The position numbers and the translations under genes were made by a program. The notes under the pieces were generated by a model. The model was not told where the DNA came from, searched no databases, and was given only the letters and a program-made list of their open reading frames with translations. Shown one piece after another: positions 12,095-46,204 of a DNA stretch of 47,448 nucleotides; position 1 is the first letter of the stretch; the number at the start of each line of letters is the position of its first letter. The DNA is from Flavobacteriales bacterium (GTDB taxonomy: Bacteria; Bacteroidota; Bacteroidia; NS11-12g; UBA955): contig NSIB01000003.1 of assembly GCA_002737625.1 (NCBI GenBank), positions 1 through 47,448 of the forward strand, given 5' to 3'.

Positions 12095-12146
12095 AAGGTT
12101 AGACAAATTCAGATCGTTGCGGGTCGTTTCGATGCGTATGCGGTTG

Positions 12147-12154
12147 TATCTTTG
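12147..12154 (+). promoter_or_regulatory. Candidate -7 promoter box for mfd
   Basis: TATCTTTG is an exact TAnnTTTG match abutting the terminator hairpin; no clean -33 TTTG seen. Confidence 0.5.
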
Positions 12155-12183
12155 AGGCCCGGCGAAGCCGGGCCTCTTTTTTT
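12154..12183 (+). terminator. Intrinsic terminator after the transketolase operon
   Basis: GAGGCCCGGC-GAA-GCCGGGCCTC (10-bp perfect stem) followed by T7. Confidence 0.85.
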
Positions 12184-12205
12184 ACGGGGTAGTGAGCAAT
12201 ACACG

Positions 12206-15200
12206 ATGAATACGAGAGAAATTTTGGGTGCCTTTGCCCAAATCCAACCCATGCAAGCACTGTCGGCCGCGGCGGAGCACGCGGCCGAACCCATCTACCT
12301 CCAAGGGCTGGCTGGCTCGGGCTTCGCCCTCGCCACCGCCACCCTCTACGCTTCAATATCCCGTCCCATCATCGCAATCCTCCCCAACAAAGACGAAGCC
12401 CAATATTTTAAATCCGACCTCGAAAATCTCCTCGTCGGTGAATCCATCTATTTCCTCCCAGATTCCTTCCTCAAACCCTATAATGCCGCCCGTGAAAATG
12501 CCATGGGTGTGCAAGAACGTATCGAAACCCTCAATGCCCTTCGTAAAAATAACAAACGCATCTTCGTAACCTATGGCTCCGCCATAGCAGAATATGTGGT
12601 CGATAAAATTGAACTCGAAAAATCTTCCATCGATATCGCTAGAGGCCAAAATCTAGATACCGAATTTTTGATGGAATTTCTGGAAATCAATGGCTTTGAA
12701 CGACGGGATTTTGTGTTCGCTCCCGGTGAATTTAGCATCCGCGGGGGAATTGTCGACCTATTCAGTTTCGCCCACGAATTCCCCTTTCGCATAGAACTCG
12801 ATGGTGATATCATCGAAAGTATCCGTACGTTTGATGTCAACGACCAACTTTCCCTCAAAGAAATTGCCCATTTCTCGCTTCTCCCCAATATTCAAGATCA
12901 ACGCGATCAAGAAACCACAATATCCATTACCGATTACTTTGATCCTAAAACACTGGTTGTTGCGTTCGACCTTAGCTTTCAAATTGAAGAACTTGGCAAA
13001 GCCTGGGAAAAAGCCCTCCAAATCCATCAAGAAGCCGTTGATTTTGGCAGAGAAGTCATCCCCAAACACCCCAAACAAATTTGGAATACGCCCAAAGGCC
13101 TCATGTCGGCCCTACAGCCCTTCACTCAAATACATAATAGCGGCGCTAGACCCACCGGAAAAATTGAAATTATCGAATTCTTGCAACAGCCGCAACCGCT
13201 CTTCAAAAGGAATTTTTCGATGCTCACCGAATGGATGCAATCCAATAAAGCCGAAGGCCTATCAACACTTGTATTTAGTGAGAATAGCCGTCAGATAGAA
13301 CGACTCATTGCAATTTTAGCCGATACCCAGTCCCAAGTCAGCTTTGAACCCGTGTATCAGGGATTGTCGTCCGGATTTGTGGATCGCGACGTAAAAATTG
13401 CTTTTACAACAGAGCATCAGCTGTTTGATAAATATTATCGTCCGCGGGGACGACAAAAATATTCGTCGCAAACATCGCTCACGTTAAGAGAACTAAAACA
13501 CTTAAAACCCGGGGATTTTGTTACTCATATTGATCATGGCATCGGCAGATTTGCGGGCCTGGAGAAAATGGATGTTCACGGTGTAAAGCAGGAAGTGGTG
13601 CGCATCGTATACAAGGACAACGATTTACTCTATGTGTCTGTGAATAGTTTGCACAAAATAAGTAAATACACAGGAAAGGATGGCACACCCCCAAGCATGC
13701 ACAAGTTGGGGAGTCCACAGTGGGATAAACAGAAAAAGGCGACAAAAAAGAAGGTTAAAGATATTGCCCGAGAGTTGATTGCATTGTACGCAAAGCGGAA
13801 ATTACAGCAGGGATTTGCGTTTGGGCCAGACAATTATATGCAGATGGAGTTGGAAGCCAGCTTTTTTTATGAGGATACGCCGGATCAAGCCAAAGCGGTG
13901 GAGGATACAAAACGAGATATGGAATCTCCGCAGCCGATGGACCGATTGGTGTGTGGCGATGTGGGTTTCGGCAAAACAGAGGTCGCCATGCGCGCCGCAT
14001 TTAAAGCCGTTTGTGATAGTAAACAGGTGGCGGTTCTAGTGCCAACAACAATTTTAGCACAACAGCATTTCCGTTCATTCTCAAAGCGATTTGCGGGGTT
14101 TCCTATAACCGTGGATTATATAAACCGATTTAAATCGGCCAAGGAGCAAAAAGACACATTGGAGAAGGTGAAAGCGGGAAAAGTAGATGTGCTCATTGGT
14201 ACGCATCGTATTTTAGGCAAAGACATCGAGTTTAAAGATTTGGGGTTGATGATCATCGACGAAGAACAGAAATTTGGTGTGGCCGCCAAAGAGAAATTGA
14301 AGGAATTTAAAGTAAATGTGGATGCACTCACACTCACGGCTACACCCATACCGCGGACTTTGCACTTTAGCTTGATGGGAGCTCGGGATTTGTCTATTAT
14401 TAACACCCCACCGCCCAACCGTCAGCCTGTGCATACCGAATTACACATGTTCAACAAGGACTTAATTGCCGAGGCGGTTCAGCAAGAAATGGAACGGGGC
14501 GGACAGATCTTCTTTGTTCATAGCCGGGTGAAAGACATCCATGAGATGGCCAGAATTATTGGAGATCTGGTGCCTGGATGCAGGGTTTGTGTGGCTCATG
14601 GTCAGATGGAAGGACATGAATTGGAAGATGCGATGGTTCAGTTTATTGAGGGGGAGTTTGATGTACTCGTGGCAACAACCATTATTGAGAGTGGGTTGGA
14701 TATTCCCAATGCCAATACAATTATTATCAACAATGCGCACATGTTTGGTCTGAGTGATTTGCACCAAATGCGGGGTAGGGTGGGCCGTAGCAATACCAAG
14801 GCTTTCTGTTATTTGCTTTCACCTCCGGTATCTGTTTTGAGTGAGGATGCGCGGAAAAGATTGCGCACGTTGGAAGAATACAGTGAATTGGGCAGTGGGT
14901 TTCAGGTTGCGATGCGGGATTTGGATATCCGAGGGGCTGGAAATTTATTGGGCGGAGAGCAGTCTGGATTCATCAGCGAAATGGGGTTTGACATGTATCA
15001 TAAGATTTTGGATGAAGCGGTGAGGGAGTTAAAAAATGAAGAGTTTGATGCGTTGTTTGATCAACCCGACGATATCAGCAGCCGAGACTGTCAAGTAGAT
15101 ACCCAATTTGAAATGCTCATTCCATCGGAATACGTCACCCAAACCTCGGAACGATTGGCGTTGTACAGTGAATTATCAAATATTAATACGGAATTGGAAT

Positions 15201-15550
15201 TGCAGCGATTTGCAAACAATTTAAAAGATCGATTTGGTAAAATTCCAAATACGGTGGCGGCATTATTGGATACCGTTCGATTAAAATGGGCGGGCAAACA
15301 GCTTGGAATGGAGAAAATTTCACTCGGAAACGGTGGAATGCGTTGCTATTTTCCTGGCGATGCCAATGCGGCAGTATATCACAGCGACAGTTTTGTGGCC
15401 ATTATGGGTTTTGTTGCTAGCAATCCCAATAAGTTTAGCGTTAGACAAACCGATAAAGCGCTGATTGTGAGTGTGAAAGGGTTGGAAACGGTTTTCGAAG
15501 CGCTCCATGTATTGGGGGAATGGGACTTGCATCGGACAACAGAAATATAA
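12206..15550 (+). CDS. mfd: Transcription-repair coupling factor
   Basis: GEFSIRGGIVD, CarD-like HIDHGIGRF, CGDVGFGKTEVA, DEEQKFGV, TATPIPRT, QMRGRVGRS, DLDIRGAGNLLG. Start set at ATG 12206. Confidence 0.98.
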   Translation: MNTREILGAFAQIQPMQALSAAAEHAAEPIYLQGLAGSGFALATATLYASISRPIIAILPNKDEAQYFKSDLENLLVGESIYFLPDSFLKPYNAARENAMGVQERIETLNALRKNNKRIFVTYGSAIAEYVVDKIELEKSSIDIARGQNLDTEFLMEFLEINGFERRDFVFAPGEFSIRGGIVDLFSFAHEFPFRIELDGDIIESIRTFDVNDQLSLKEIAHFSLLPNIQDQRDQETTISITDYFDPKTLVVAFDLSFQIEELGKAWEKALQIHQEAVDFGREVIPKHPKQIWNTPKGLMSALQPFTQIHNSGARPTGKIEIIEFLQQPQPLFKRNFSMLTEWMQSNKAEGLSTLVFSENSRQIERLIAILADTQSQVSFEPVYQGLSSGFVDRDVKIAFTTEHQLFDKYYRPRGRQKYSSQTSLTLRELKHLKPGDFVTHIDHGIGRFAGLEKMDVHGVKQEVVRIVYKDNDLLYVSVNSLHKISKYTGKDGTPPSMHKLGSPQWDKQKKATKKKVKDIARELIALYAKRKLQQGFAFGPDNYMQMELEASFFYEDTPDQAKAVEDTKRDMESPQPMDRLVCGDVGFGKTEVAMRAAFKAVCDSKQVAVLVPTTILAQQHFRSFSKRFAGFPITVDYINRFKSAKEQKDTLEKVKAGKVDVLIGTHRILGKDIEFKDLGLMIIDEEQKFGVAAKEKLKEFKVNVDALTLTATPIPRTLHFSLMGARDLSIINTPPPNRQPVHTELHMFNKDLIAEAVQQEMERGGQIFFVHSRVKDIHEMARIIGDLVPGCRVCVAHGQMEGHELEDAMVQFIEGEFDVLVATTIIESGLDIPNANTIIINNAHMFGLSDLHQMRGRVGRSNTKAFCYLLSPPVSVLSEDARKRLRTLEEYSELGSGFQVAMRDLDIRGAGNLLGGEQSGFISEMGFDMYHKILDEAVRELKNEEFDALFDQPDDISSRDCQVDTQFEMLIPSEYVTQTSERLALYSELSNINTELELQRFANNLKDRFGKIPNTVAALLDTVRLKWAGKQLGMEKISLGNGGMRCYFPGDANAAVYHSDSFVAIMGFVASNPNKFSVRQTDKALIVSVKGLETVFEALHVLGEWDLHRTTEI

Positions 15551-22475: not shown

Positions 22476-22507
22476 ATAAAGCGGGGCGCAATAGCGCCCC
22501 GCTTTAT
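22476..22507. terminator. 14-bp perfect stem-loop after the lipoprotein gene (probable terminator)
   Basis: ATAAAGCGGGGCGC-AATA-GCGCCCCGCTTTAT; U-tract is short. Confidence 0.6.
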
Positions 22508-30076: not shown

Positions 30077-30106
30077 AAAAAGGGAGCCCATGGGCTCCCT
30101 TTTTTT
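30077..30106 (+). terminator. Intrinsic terminator after sucC
   Basis: AAAAAGGGAGCCCATGGGCTCCCTTTTT, a perfect 28-bp palindrome running into a T-tract. Confidence 0.85.
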
Positions 30107-42552: not shown

Positions 42553-45015
42553 GTGACGGAGATTCAGACCCTTTTTGCGCATGTGTTGGTGCCAGTGCCG
42601 GTGCCAAAGGCCTATACGTATCGGGTTCCTCACGATTGGAACGACTGGATTCATCAGGGTTTGAGGGTTGCGGTGCAATTTGGACCAAAGAAGATATATG
42701 CAGGAATTATTTTGGAGCTGAGTGATTCTCCACCGGAGGGTTATCAAGCTTCTTATATCTTGGATGTGTTGGACGATGCACCCATTGTGAATCACAAGCA
42801 ATTGCAGTTTTGGCGTTGGGTGGCCAAATATTATATGTGTTATTTGGGGGAGGTGATGGCTACTGCGTTGCCAGCGGGGTATCGACTTCAGAGTGAGACG
42901 AAGATTGTTTTGCATCCCGATGCAGATTTGGAAGCGATAAGTAGGACTGATGTTGAAGATTTGGAGTGGCAGATTTTGGAGTTGTTAGGGAAGAAGGATG
43001 GGATGTCGTTGGACGATATACATCAAAAGCTGGCGGTTAAGAATGTGCTGAAGCATGTTAAGTCGTTGTATTTAAGGGGTTTGGTGGTAATGGAGGAGGA
43101 GTTGAAGGAGAATTATCGACCTAAATATGAGGAGTTTTTAGAGTTGTGCAGTATTTGGGATGATTCGGAATTGGCAAATTCGAGTTTGAACGCGTTGGAG
43201 CGACGTGCACCGAAGCAGTATGAGGCGATTATGCATATTTTGGGGACGGGAAAGAGGGAGTTGACGGTGGAATCAATTGTGAAGGGATTTGAGATGGACA
43301 GGACGGTGCTGAAGCAGTTAGAGAAGAAGTCGTTGATAATGATTGTGAAGCGCCGCCGCGATCACCTTCAGGTGATCCGCGGCGGCGCGCAAGAATACCA
43401 ACTCACCGAATCTCAGTCGCGGGCCCTTGGAATCATTCGCGCTGGATTTGAAGAAAAACAGCCGGCCTTGCTTTACGGGGTTACGGGATCGGGTAAAACC
43501 CATGTGTATATGGAGTTGGTGAAGGAGACGTTGGCGGCGGGGAAACAGGTGCTTTATTTGTTGCCAGAGGTTGCACTAACGGAGCATATGGTGGCTCGGA
43601 TGGGTGCGTTTTTGCCGGTGGAAATTGGCGTTTGGCATCACTTTTATAGTTCTCACGAGAGGACGGAATTGTACGATCGGATATTGAAGGATCAAATCCA
43701 GTTTGTGGTGGGTACTAAAGGGGCGGTGTTTGCTCCTTTTTCTAATTTGGGGTTGATTGTGGTGGATGAGGAGCATGAATCAACGTATAAGCAGTTTGAT
43801 AAAAAGCCATTTTATCACGGTCGGGATTCGGCGTTTCAGTTGGCCAAGTATCATGGGGCCAATGTTTTGTTGGGTTCGGCTACGCCGAGTTATGAAATGC
43901 AGTTTGCTGTGCAGCAGCATCGTATGGTAATTGCCGAAATAACGGAGAAGTACGATGGCGGAAAACCGGCTGAGTTGATGTATTTGAATATCGGTGAGTT
44001 GAAGAAAACGGGTCAGATGAATTCGTTGTTTTCCGAGCCGGTGAGGATGGCCATTCAGAAGGCGATGGATGTGAAGCAGAAGGTGGTGGTGTATCACAAT
44101 CGAAAGGGGTATGTGCCTTATATTGAGTGTGGGGATTGTGGGTTGACAACGCAGTGCAAGCATTGTGATATTTCGATGACCTACTATAAGAGTTCAGACA
44201 ATCAGCGATGCAGTTATTGTGGGTTTCAGCAGCCGGTACCATCGAAATGTGTGGCCTGTGGTTCTCAGGATTTGAAGTTGAAGGGGACGGGCACGGAGAA
44301 GTTGGCGGAGGAATTGGGGCAGCTGTTTCCCAAGGCTAGGGTGGCGCGGTTTGACCAGCAGAGCATGCGGAAGCGGGATGATTTTCAGAATATTTTGACG
44401 GCGTTTGAGCGGGGTGATATTGATATTTTGGTGGGGACGCAGTTGTTATCGAAGGGGATTGATATAGAGAATATCGGCTTGGTTGTGGTGCCGGATGCGG
44501 ATATGTTGTTGCACATTCCTGATTTTAGGAGTCATGAACGGGCATTTCAGCAACTGCAACAATTGAGTGGTAGGATAGGGCGCCGCGCGGAGCGCGGCGT
44601 GATGATGTTACAGACATATCAACCGGAACATGAAGTATTGAAGTCCCTGAAAGCCGATGATTACCAAGGGTTGATGCAAGTGGAAATGGAGCAGCGCGAA
44701 GCCTTCGGCTATCCTCCTTACACAAAGTTGATTAAGGTGGATGTGAAGCACATAGATGCACAAGTGGCGACCGAGGCCAGCCGTTGGCTGGCCGACCAAT
44801 TGCGAAAGCAATTGGGGAACCTGGTGCTGGGGCCCCAGGTTCCTTCGGTCGCCCGCATAAAAAATCGATTCATCCAGCAAATTGTCATCAAGGTCCCCCG
44901 AGAAACCGCCCAACTGAACGCCGCAAAATTCCTATTGCAACAAGTTCGTGAAGCGGCCTTGGCTCACAACAGTTGGCGTTCGGTTCGCATCGATATTATC
45001 ATCGATCCCAATTAA
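42553..45015 (+). CDS. priA: Primosomal protein N' (replication restart helicase)
   Basis: YTYRVP, GVTGSGKT, DEEHE, GSATPS, four CxxC pairs, GTEKL, PDFRSHER, GRIGR, YPPY, DPN end. Confidence 0.97.
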   Translation: MTEIQTLFAHVLVPVPVPKAYTYRVPHDWNDWIHQGLRVAVQFGPKKIYAGIILELSDSPPEGYQASYILDVLDDAPIVNHKQLQFWRWVAKYYMCYLGEVMATALPAGYRLQSETKIVLHPDADLEAISRTDVEDLEWQILELLGKKDGMSLDDIHQKLAVKNVLKHVKSLYLRGLVVMEEELKENYRPKYEEFLELCSIWDDSELANSSLNALERRAPKQYEAIMHILGTGKRELTVESIVKGFEMDRTVLKQLEKKSLIMIVKRRRDHLQVIRGGAQEYQLTESQSRALGIIRAGFEEKQPALLYGVTGSGKTHVYMELVKETLAAGKQVLYLLPEVALTEHMVARMGAFLPVEIGVWHHFYSSHERTELYDRILKDQIQFVVGTKGAVFAPFSNLGLIVVDEEHESTYKQFDKKPFYHGRDSAFQLAKYHGANVLLGSATPSYEMQFAVQQHRMVIAEITEKYDGGKPAELMYLNIGELKKTGQMNSLFSEPVRMAIQKAMDVKQKVVVYHNRKGYVPYIECGDCGLTTQCKHCDISMTYYKSSDNQRCSYCGFQQPVPSKCVACGSQDLKLKGTGTEKLAEELGQLFPKARVARFDQQSMRKRDDFQNILTAFERGDIDILVGTQLLSKGIDIENIGLVVVPDADMLLHIPDFRSHERAFQQLQQLSGRIGRRAERGVMMLQTYQPEHEVLKSLKADDYQGLMQVEMEQREAFGYPPYTKLIKVDVKHIDAQVATEASRWLADQLRKQLGNLVLGPQVPSVARIKNRFIQQIVIKVPRETAQLNAAKFLLQQVREAALAHNSWRSVRIDIIIDPN
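43350..43388. other. Intragenic GC-rich hairpin (17-bp stem, one bulged C)
   Basis: GCGCCGCCGCG-ATCACC-TTCA-GGTGAT-c-CGCGGCGGCGC read directly. Confidence 0.85.
44766..44853. other. Intragenic four-way cloverleaf (closing stem plus three hairpins)
   Basis: Perfect Watson-Crick stems of 9, 8, 8 and 9 bp joined by 0-2 nt linkers; pairings are given in the findings. Confidence 0.85.
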
Positions 45016-45079
45016 TGACATTCCTCATCATTTTTTCCCAATCGGATATCGTAAATTTGAAAAATATTATCACAATACC

Positions 45080-46204
45080 ATGGAAACATCAACCTTAGAA
45101 ACTGTAGCCACCGATGTGGATTTTTTACCCTTAAATGGTACGGATCACTTGGAATTTTATGTGGGCAATGCCAAACAGAGCGCCTACTATTATCAAACAG
45201 CTTGGGGCTATAAGCTAGTTGCGTATGCTGGACCGGAAACAGGAGTGAGAGATCGCGCTAGTTATGTGTTACAGCAAGATAAAATCCGCTTGGTTTTAAC
45301 CACCTCGATGGATCCAAATAGCGAAGTGACAAAGCATCAATCACAGCATGGCGATGGAGTTAAGTTTTTGAGCCTTTGGGTAGATGATGCAACGGCGAGT
45401 TTCAATGAAACAGTGAAGCGCGGTGCAAGGCCTTATATGGAGCCTACCACCATGGAAGATGAGTTTGGAACCGTTGTAGTGAGTGGTATTTATACCTACG
45501 GAGAAACCGTTCACAAGTTTGTTGAGCGTAAAAATTATAAAGGCGCCTTTTTGCCAGGTTACAAAGCCGTGCCAAACGCAATGGACGTAACCCCAGTGGG
45601 ACTCAAATACGTGGACCATTGCGTGGGTAATGTTGAGTTGGGTAAAATGGATGAGTGGGTTGAATTTTATGAGAATGTAATGGGCTTTAAGTTGTTGTTG
45701 ACCTTCGACGATAAGGATATCAGTACAGAATACAGTGCTTTGATGAGTAAGGTTGTGAGCAACGGAAACGGGTATGTTAAGTTCCCAATCAATGAGCCAG
45801 CCGACGGAAAGAAGAAGTCTCAAATTGAAGAGTATTTGGATTTTTATCGCGGCCCAGGTGTGCAACACATCGCCGTTGAAACCGATGATATTCTAGAAAC
45901 TGTAGCCGATTTACGTCGTAGAGGCGTGGAATTCCTTTACGTTCCAGAGACCTACTACGATGATGTTTTGGATCGTGTAGGTCATGTTGAGGAAGATTTA
46001 GTAGCGTTGAAAAAAATGAATATCCTTATCGATCGCGATGATAGTGGGTATTTGTTGCAGATTTTCACCAAGCCGGTTGAAGACCGACCTACGTTGTTTT
46101 ATGAAATCATCCAGCGCAAAGGGGCCAAGAGTTTCGGGAAAGGAAACTTTAAGGCCTTGTTTGAAAGCATTGAACGCGAGCAAGCCAGCCGCGGAAACTT
46201 GTAA
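45080..46204 (+). CDS. hppD: 4-hydroxyphenylpyruvate dioxygenase
   Basis: DHLEFYVGNAKQ, HGDGVK, DHCVGNV, KFPINEP, SQIEEYL, GVQHIA, LLQIFT, FGKGNFKALFESIE. Start ATG 45080; TAAATTTG box at 45052-45059. Confidence 0.97.
   Translation: METSTLETVATDVDFLPLNGTDHLEFYVGNAKQSAYYYQTAWGYKLVAYAGPETGVRDRASYVLQQDKIRLVLTTSMDPNSEVTKHQSQHGDGVKFLSLWVDDATASFNETVKRGARPYMEPTTMEDEFGTVVVSGIYTYGETVHKFVERKNYKGAFLPGYKAVPNAMDVTPVGLKYVDHCVGNVELGKMDEWVEFYENVMGFKLLLTFDDKDISTEYSALMSKVVSNGNGYVKFPINEPADGKKKSQIEEYLDFYRGPGVQHIAVETDDILETVADLRRRGVEFLYVPETYYDDVLDRVGHVEEDLVALKKMNILIDRDDSGYLLQIFTKPVEDRPTLFYEIIQRKGAKSFGKGNFKALFESIEREQASRGNL

Follow-up and report, generated by a model that had tools for sequence, protein, structure and literature searches.

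A perfect four-way cloverleaf encoded within priA in a freshwater Flavobacteriales lineage rich in coding palindromes

The cloverleaf in priA

The gene priA, coding for the replication restart helicase, lies in a 47,448-nt stretch of contig NSIB01000003.1 (the window, to which all positions refer unless another contig is named), followed by hppD. The DNA comes from an uncultured freshwater lineage of Bacteroidota/Flavobacteriales, represented by metagenome-assembled genomes alone; the source genome is called G000 and belongs to the first of the clades A–D described below. Within the 3′ part of priA, an 88-nt element forms a four-way junction, with a closing stem and three hairpin arms (Table 1). 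An arm-by-arm check of the sequence gives 34 Watson–Crick pairs and no G.T pair. The junction linkers are GA between arms 1 and 2, none between arms 2 and 3, and a single T (44844) after arm 3. In the loop of arm 3, two more inner G-C pairs are predicted. In the closing stem, third codon positions pair with third codon positions. The frame through the element encodes VATEASRWLADQLRKQLGNLVLGPQVPSVA within the priA open reading frame (ORF), a peptide that falls in the C-terminal domain when aligned with solved PriA structures. The stems, loops, linkers, and positions, as well as the 34 pairs without wobble, had been proposed in an earlier reading made from the letters alone (the sequence-only reading), and they are all as proposed.

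Table 1. Positions in the window of the cloverleaf, its parts, and the features around it
Feature	Positions	Strand	Remarks
Whole compound coding palindrome	44766..44853	.	Codon 738 (third base) to codon 767 of priA
Closing stem, 5′ arm, GGCGACCGA (codons V-A-T-E)	44766..44774	.	9 bp with 44845-44853
Arm 1 hairpin, 8 bp, loop GTT	44775..44793	.	Oldest part; perfect in clades A, B, and C
Arm 2 hairpin, 8 bp, loop GAAA (GGAA in several lineages)	44796..44815	.	Clades A and B only
Arm 3 hairpin, 9 bp, 10-nt loop	44816..44843	.	Clades A and B only
Closing stem, 3′ arm, TCGGTCGCC (codons S-V-A)	44845..44853	.	Pairs with 44766-44774
priA, replication restart helicase, 820 aa	42553..45015	+	TIGR00595, 493 bits (cut-off 230)
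Second priA coding hairpin, 17 bp, one bulged C, loop TTCA	43350..43388	.	
Third priA coding hairpin, CGCCGCGC-GGA-GCGCGGCG	44581..44599	.	Over helicase motif GRIGRRAERG
hppD, 4-hydroxyphenylpyruvate dioxygenase	45080..46204	+	Downstream gene, outside the element; TIGR01263, 450 bits (cut-off 277)

The minimum-energy fold of the element (ViennaRNA) is exactly the four-way structure for the plus-strand RNA, for the minus-strand RNA, and for the DNA, in line with the earlier statement that both strands can fold. The energies are -64.4 kcal/mol for the plus-strand RNA (z -8.50), -61.6 kcal/mol for the minus-strand RNA (z -8.33), and -39.9 kcal/mol for the DNA (z -9.56), with 0/200 shuffles as good in each case. 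Synonymous recoding does not recreate the fold: with the codon usage of the genome, none of 5000 recodings reaches -64.4 kcal/mol (mean -25.9, z -8.7), and none of 5000 does when the recodings are matched for the G+C content of third codon positions, or GC3 (mean -36.9, z -5.4). Among 5000 permutations of the synonymous codons of the region itself, a single one reaches the native energy. The G+C content of the element is 67% (vs. 42.7% for the genome) and its GC3 is 0.80 (vs. 0.44). When the genome is scanned for folding in 38,491 windows of 90 nt (mean -15.9 and standard deviation 5.5 over the first 26,637), the lowest window is at -58.8, so that the element, at -64.4, lies below every window. 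A structural scan of the 1.46-Mb genome for perfect multi-branch junctions yields one candidate, the element itself, and none in two shuffles. No second copy of the sequence is found in G000 by BLAST.

The element is not a tRNA, as had been concluded from its geometry: ARAGORN finds no tRNA gene between 44000 and 45500, the arms have 9/8/8/9 bp (vs. 7/4/5/5 in tRNAs), and there is no match to the tRNA clan of Rfam at the element at E-values up to 10. Among the families of Rfam 15, the best overlap is with RAGATH-32, at 12.7 bits for a gathering score of 41.8 (E 7.9). The pattern of an intrinsic terminator is absent as well, the sequence after 44853 being CGCATAAAAAATCG, without a T run; the real terminators of this genome bear A and T tracts on both flanks.

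Orthologs and clades

PriA orthologs occur in 41 of the 41 related genomes. We examined 81 loci, 30 from relatives and 51 from two pattern scans of public collections. Gap-free codon alignments over the full length could be used for 53 of them (the 28 dropped are 20 unrelated pattern matches, six partial sequences, and two sequences gapped elsewhere). All 53 match codon for codon at the element, with no insertion or deletion. The element is overprinted on conserved C-terminal codons of PriA, without insertion.

In a priA tree computed with the hairpins masked, there are four sub-clades, with D as the outgroup and A, B, and C forming a three-way split. Out of the 34 Watson–Crick pairs, distant orthologs have 9–14, clade D has 18, clade C has 18–22 (with arm 1 at 8/8 in all clade C sequences), and clades A and B have 33–34. 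No sequence has a count between 22 and 33. In clades C and D, 5–7 of the nine pairs of the closing stem are already present, and 1–4 of the eight pairs of arm 2. The codons for A-T-E and S-V-A are complementary save for the third positions: the protein sequence pre-forms imperfect inverted repeats. To complete arms 2 and 3, variable positions of the protein had to change their amino acid (K to R, S/V to Q, and R/K/N to L). The peptide of the element is identical between clades A and B.

A covariance model built on the element gives a full score (110–116 bits) in 11 of the 20 genomes of the genus; in clade C it has only a weak match at priA, and in clade D it has none. The matches are confined to priA, in 17 of the 20 genomes, and never include a second locus. 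Both searches for other copies of the fold, the scan of G000 and the model run on the 20 genomes, return only the element.

Conservation of the pairing

Clades A and B are 22% divergent over all bases of priA. At third codon positions, the difference is 1/30 in the element versus 356/790 in the rest of priA (p 7e-7), and the most conserved 90-nt window of the gene is the element (98.9% vs. a mean of 77.8%). The sites within the element do not behave alike. In a set of 14 distinct sequences from clades A and B, variable third positions amount to 44/60 in the flanks, 4/6 at unpaired sites of the element (44784, 44805, 44829, and 44844), and 2/24 at paired sites (paired vs. flanks, p 5e-8; paired vs. 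unpaired, p 0.007). The two invariant unpaired sites are those predicted to form the extra pairs in the loop of arm 3. The middle base of the arm 1 loop is T, G, or A, position 44829 in the arm 3 loop is G, A, or T, and the linker 44844 is T or G. Both variants at paired sites are singletons and transversions, and no G.T pair occurs in 16 distinct full-element sequences. In arm 2, the loop GAAA is replaced by GGAA in several lineages; therefore, the GCGAAAGC motif as such is dispensable. Over all four clades, 79% of the alignment cells are paired and eight pairs are changed on both sides. Pairing is conserved in A and B, and true covariation is scarce because the structure is clade-limited.

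The near-identity of A and B in the element could alternatively come from a recent recombination patch of ∼92 bp, which would account for the spread only and is compatible with an origin by template switching or by function. Several observations agree with a patch: the branching order of A, B, and C is a three-way split in the tree, clade B shares the cloverleaf with A but is without the two hairpins of priA common to A and C, and one clade B sequence (L062) is identical to L001 across all 88 bases. In addition, identity at unpaired sites is not significant, with only 4–6 free sites. However, the identical block ends 2–3 bases from the structure on both sides, in flanks that are ∼25% divergent, which would be an odd coincidence for a random tract. 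Further, the unpaired sites are polymorphic within both clades, as expected of an old and constrained sequence. Such a patch is quite improbable.

The two other hairpins of priA (Table 1) follow a different distribution. They are identical over 40–42 nt between clades A and C, decayed (the second) or broken (the third) in D, and decayed at the background rate in clade B. The hairpins common to A and C and the cloverleaf common to A and B conflict, and therefore either loss or short transfer has to be invoked.

Coding hairpins elsewhere in the genome

With a stem of at least 10 bp and a loop of 3–8 nt, G000 contains 109 perfect hairpins, versus 6–9 in three local shuffles. Many of them are two-way terminators with A and T tracts. 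Without such tracts and at least 30 nt inside ORFs of at least 150 codons, there are 43 intragenic hairpins, including 26 with a stem of at least 12 bp (up to 23 bp, mean G+C 0.62); 36 stay after dropping the seven upstream of the first ATG. The host genes are ordinary ones, for example, those for DprA, a second DnaE-like polymerase, a fused Ddl, PabA, and a rhodanese, where the hairpin encodes the active-site loop of the protein. In 34 of the 43 intragenic hairpins, third codon positions pair with first or second positions. Mismatches are rare: across 50 intragenic hairpins, there are five isolated ones, none of them G.T or A.C. The triloops, read on the sense strand, comprise 12 GNA, 12 TNC, and 8 others, GNA and TNC being especially stable DNA triloops. 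Along the ORFs, the counts per quarter are 21/6/7/9 (p 0.0007, n = 43), or 15/5/7/9 (p 0.049) without the seven upstream of the first ATG.

The density of these hairpins is 29.5/Mb in G000 (clade A, whole genome; 26 stems of at least 12 bp), 26.0/Mb in G018 (clade C, 538 kb; six such stems), and 15/Mb in G010 (clade B, 133 kb only; one). It falls to 5.9/Mb in G012 (clade D, 340 kb), to 5.0/Mb in G021 (another genus, 200 kb), and to 9.6/Mb in G039 (another family, 520 kb), where the hairpins are AT-rich; all three genomes are at chance level, and none has a stem of 12 bp or more.

Perfect hairpins of 17–23 bp occur at C43:6093-6141, C43:6199-6246, C60:25836-25882, C11:26051-26096, C13:14956-14998, C13:2622-2660, C25:1244-1316, and C18:6172-6208 (contig:positions in G000), in genes for a lipoprotein-like ORF, the fused Ddl, PabA, a WD40 protein, DprA, the DnaE-like polymerase, and the rhodanese. 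Several host genes bear two long hairpins. In the window, a GC-rich coding hairpin, GAGGCCCGGC-GAA-GCCGGGCCTC, is present at 12154-12176, close to the start of a 1151-codon ORF (12095-15547), and the perfect hairpins at 22476-22507 and 30077-30104 resemble two-way terminators.

How the hairpins evolve

We aligned the orthologs of three host genes across the genus and compared all hairpins of G000 with the sampled relatives. In nine hairpins, at least 13 pairs are compensated, with both sides substituted and the Watson–Crick pairing kept. In the gene for the DnaE-like polymerase, a block of four pairs has changed, rewriting the amino acids of both arms. In some clades, stems have been lengthened outward. 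Three exact loop inversions with co-linear flanks are seen: GAA/TTC between two clade C sequences that are otherwise identical, and TGC/GCA in DprA and at C59:33654. In the part of Monttinen and Löytynoja (2022; PMC8794818) considered here, the footprints given for template switching are simultaneous compensation of several pairs, longer stems, and a fully inverted loop.

Two loci deserve mention on their own. In clade C, the sequence L144 (G008:C6) has an in-frame TAA inside the second hairpin of the DnaE-like gene; palindrome evolution may have broken the gene there, or the TAA may be an assembly error. At the end of the WD40 gene, the 20-bp hairpin C13:14956-14998 coincides with a length difference of ∼35 nt with respect to L213 (G018, clade C), and its 3′ arm appears, from this comparison, to have replaced the ancestral sequence.

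If selection had acted on an mRNA structure, G.U pairs and a preferred orientation on the sense strand would be expected. The hairpins show no tolerance of G.U and no sense-strand bias, and the evidence therefore favors a pairing that acts at the level of the DNA rather than of the sense RNA. This bears on another suggestion of the sequence-only reading, a structured RNA ahead of hppD; on a priA-hppD transcript, it might act, for example, as a stabilizer, a processing site, or an attenuator. The RNA fold is very stable, and contigs from RNA libraries of three studies span the whole of 44300-45300 at ∼94% identity, with no difference between 44755 and 44855 among the 40 listed (61 in all). A fourth RNA run gives small contigs at 44798-45009 and 45031-45300, the former starting inside the element. 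These contigs carry no information on ends, strand, or level, and carry-over of DNA is possible, so that they have no bearing on processing. Against such an RNA, there is no G.U pair anywhere and the two stem variants are transversions, the antisense strand folds equally well, and the orientation of the loops across the class has no sense-strand bias. Moreover, no U-tract follows 44853, no Rfam family matches, and hppD starts 226 nt 3′ of the element with its own short upstream region. We consider a role in RNA ahead of hppD hardly probable at all.

The DNA-level character (no wobble, loops symmetric between strands) supports one half of the earlier idea of a signal in single-stranded DNA (ssDNA), and the link to PriA, its other half, finds no support. 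PriA recognizes branched DNA and a hairpin assembly site; accordingly, a folded single strand of the element had been supposed to mimic branched DNA or the primosome assembly site and to be bound by PriA in restart, priming, or autoregulation. Such a signal would be in keeping with a place inside priA, with a geometry like that of a junction, and with two strands that both fold. However, the full element exists in 11/20 genomes of the genus, in two sub-clades only, and priA in all 20 (and in all 41 related genomes); ∼40 other, unrelated genes of the lineage hold perfect hairpins; and one clade let the two further hairpins of priA decay. Present once per genome, the element could hardly serve restart across the whole chromosome. 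A signal specific to PriA is very unlikely.

Origin and possible function

The cloverleaf and the coding hairpins were probably, if far from certainly, made and kept perfect by template switching, without a dedicated function. We infer both the agent and the absence of a dedicated function from the comparisons above. The PriA sequence would offer four imperfect inverted repeats to start from (ATE...SVA, EASR/WLA, QL.K/QLG, and GN.V/PQVP). In intrastrand template switching (quasi-palindrome correction) during DNA replication, the growing strand would fold back and copy the complementary arm, which would erase mismatches, lengthen stems, and sometimes invert loops. Selection at the protein level would purge the conversions that damage PriA. 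A synonymous change in one arm would be undone or else carried over to the opposite arm, where it would usually be non-synonymous and then removed. Paired third positions would be frozen, and unpaired ones would drift, because conversion combines with selection on the protein. Arm 1 would have been perfected first; the remainder would have followed in the common ancestor of A and B, or in just one of these clades with a short transfer to the other. In clades A–C, the process would be exceptionally active, or exceptionally well tolerated, with the priA cloverleaf as its most elaborate product, one that needs no function of its own and is no signal for PriA.

Several points weigh against this account. 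The multi-branch junction is unique, and a neutral process must yield, at this place, four helices separated by only three linker bases. A GC3 of 0.80 in a genome with a GC3 of 0.44 is not predicted by conversion alone. Six third-to-third pairs, in the closing stem and arm 1, are free to change synonymously and yet are unchanged between A and B; the three of them in arm 1 are unchanged in clade C too. Under neutral conversion, ∼45% change is expected and none is seen, which hints at selection for this exact GC-rich sequence. Neither a loop inversion nor a compensated pair was seen within the priA element itself. The case for template switching is drawn wholly from comparative patterns in metagenome-assembled genomes, and the hairpin densities of the relatives rest on samples of 133–538 kb. 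Finally, the proneness of the clade to hairpins is accounted for by none of three candidates: exonuclease VII (XseA), a Y1 transposase, or the second DnaE-like polymerase.

In the case of exonuclease VII, the large subunit, XseA (PF02601), is found in 4/19 further genomes of the genus, from clades A and B, and in 1/16 of the sister family. This distribution is patchy and does not track hairpin richness, and loss of the enzyme was therefore rejected as the cause. In the whole sample of the order, PF02601 occurs in 9/41 genomes and is missing from many that are 99%–100% complete. The second DnaE-like polymerase is missing in clade D, yet it is present in the hairpin-poor G021 and G039 and widespread in the order; it was rejected too. 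The Y1 (IS200-like) transposase, PF01797, is detected in none of the 20 genomes of the genus (two of them 100% complete) and in 11 of 21 outside it.

The coding hairpins might instead be a functional class under purifying selection for the folded nucleic acid, with the priA junction as a specialized member and template switching as, at most, a source of variation. We see this as a tentative possibility. Its conceivable roles are ssDNA signals for the lagging strand or for DNA uptake, cruciform or protein-binding sites, and barriers to nucleases or polymerases. Paired sites that stay frozen over ∼45% third-position divergence, when unpaired ones vary, would be natural for such a class, as would third-to-third pairs without synonymous drift, the retained GC3, and an arm 1 kept in three clades. 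In the priA element and in the DnaE-like gene, amino acids have been altered to suit the pairing. The junction geometry is unique in the genome, the loops are mostly of the stable GNA and TNC types (24/32 triloops), and there is a weak lean to the 5′ quarter of the ORFs. On the other hand, the host genes are unrelated and so are the positions within them; hairpins are gained and lost between sister clades, as in the decay in clade B noted above; and there is neither a common sequence motif nor a second copy. The hairpins are perfect or nothing, without imperfect intermediates, a pattern more readily explained by conversion than by two selections pulling against each other. The analysis turned up no candidate for a protein that binds them.

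A narrower alternative, which we regard as unlikely, is a lineage with an active system that writes and polices hairpins used as ssDNA or cruciform signals, the priA junction being a dedicated DNA (or RNA) structure. The 88-nt junction would then have been built stepwise from the older hairpin. The unique junction, the undrifted pairs, and the GC-richness keep a functional reading open, be it for the class of hairpins or for the priA element.

Relation to known systems

Since an inverted repeat in coding DNA constrains two stretches of protein at once, few such repeats would be expected there. The closest parallel is with the coding palindromes of nematomorph mitochondria (2019; PMC6649704). 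There, in the parts of the report at hand, perfect-or-absent repeats lie in genes with scattered gains and losses, and the authors propose active conversion or template switching and a “parasitic” structure without required function. As in that report, the repeats described here are inside genes with both arms coding for conserved protein, are either perfect or absent, and are numerous in the genome, with gains and losses between related lineages. The differences are the location in a bacterial chromosome, GC-rich stems of 8–29 bp (vs. up to 284 bp), loops of 3–4 nt, and, in priA, a nested four-way junction, a form absent from those parts of the report.

In Proteobacteria, Lavi et al. (2018; PMC5941160) treat short perfect inverted repeats with a model of mutation and template-switch correction, as far as the portion of that paper considered here goes. 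Two traits are shared, an excess that grows with arm length and orthologous repeats more conserved than their surroundings. In the same portion, those repeats are non-coding only, the coding ones being set aside, whereas those seen here are intragenic, alter amino acids, and belong to one part of a genus. The multiple compensated pairs, extended stems, and inverted loops also recall those of PMC8794818; the sections of that paper drawn on here deal with RNA genes in which the hairpin is functional, whereas here mRNAs and proteins without known need for a hairpin are concerned.

Rickettsia palindromic elements (RPEs), miniature inverted-repeat transposable elements (MITEs), and repetitive extragenic palindromes (REPs) with their REP-associated tyrosine transposases (RAYTs) are palindromic too, and may lie inside genes and be translated. 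RPEs and MITEs are multi-copy insertions that add residues and decay, whereas the priA element is single copy, adds none, and stays perfect. An in-frame mobile palindrome of that kind was rejected, with no insertion in the 53 alignments and one locus per genome. REPs are extragenic and accompany a Y1 transposase; a REP/RAYT element was rejected for the single-copy, intragenic priA element in a genus where the transposase was not found. An intragenic inverton was rejected likewise: an inverted interior occurs in 0/28 sequences of clades A and B and the contigs show no strand-changing joints. The inverted interior would keep an open frame but lose the conserved VLGP motif.

Primosome assembly and single-strand initiation sites of the phiX174 type are, like the element as judged from its letters, folded ssDNA of 50–100 nt with stem-loops. 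They are defined by activity, in non-coding DNA of phages and plasmids, and are not perfect multi-branch palindromes. We know of no sequence consensus for the assembly or initiation sites of PriA.

Inverted repeats maintained by template switching are known, and so are coding palindromes. We found no report, supplements lying outside the search, of coding palindromes in the chromosomes of Bacteroidota or other bacteria, and likewise none of a burst limited to a clade and situated inside the genes of a bacterial chromosome, or of a nested four-way example. One bacterial lineage carries dozens of coding palindromes, the most elaborate being the flawless four-way junction within a helicase gene of essential type. 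If they arose by template switching, the lineage would be a natural system with an unusually strong quasi-palindrome drive, and a comparison of clades A–C with D may expose what determines how often template switching happens. Perfect conservation and compensated changes could then appear without structural function, which would call for caution in RNA discovery based on covariation, in dN/dS (the ratio of non-synonymous to synonymous substitution rates), in site-independent phylogenetics, and in the interpretation of conserved coding structures. If instead they serve a function, the hairpins would represent a new class of DNA signals within genes; if the junction is a dedicated structure, a bacterial protein-coding sequence and a multi-branch nucleic-acid structure would be selected together.

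Base composition of priA and the region upstream of hppD

In the sense strand of priA, G strongly exceeds C, with a skew of 0.2–0.66 in 200-nt bins over 42553-44750 (for example, G69/C14 at 42953-43152), and between the element and the stop codon the skew falls away to nearly zero. The sequence-only reading had noted a flip of the skew across the element; its counts are correct (G29/C7 at 44401-44480 and G12/C25 at 44861-44940), but the change is local, within a strongly G-skewed gene. With no flip at the scale of the window, an origin-like skew switch was rejected.

In front of hppD, 20 nt 5′ of its start, the sequence TAAATTTG at 45052-45059 matches TAnnTTTG, which we take to be the -7 element of Bacteroidota promoters. 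The second of the two small RNA-library contigs begins, at 45031, near this sequence.

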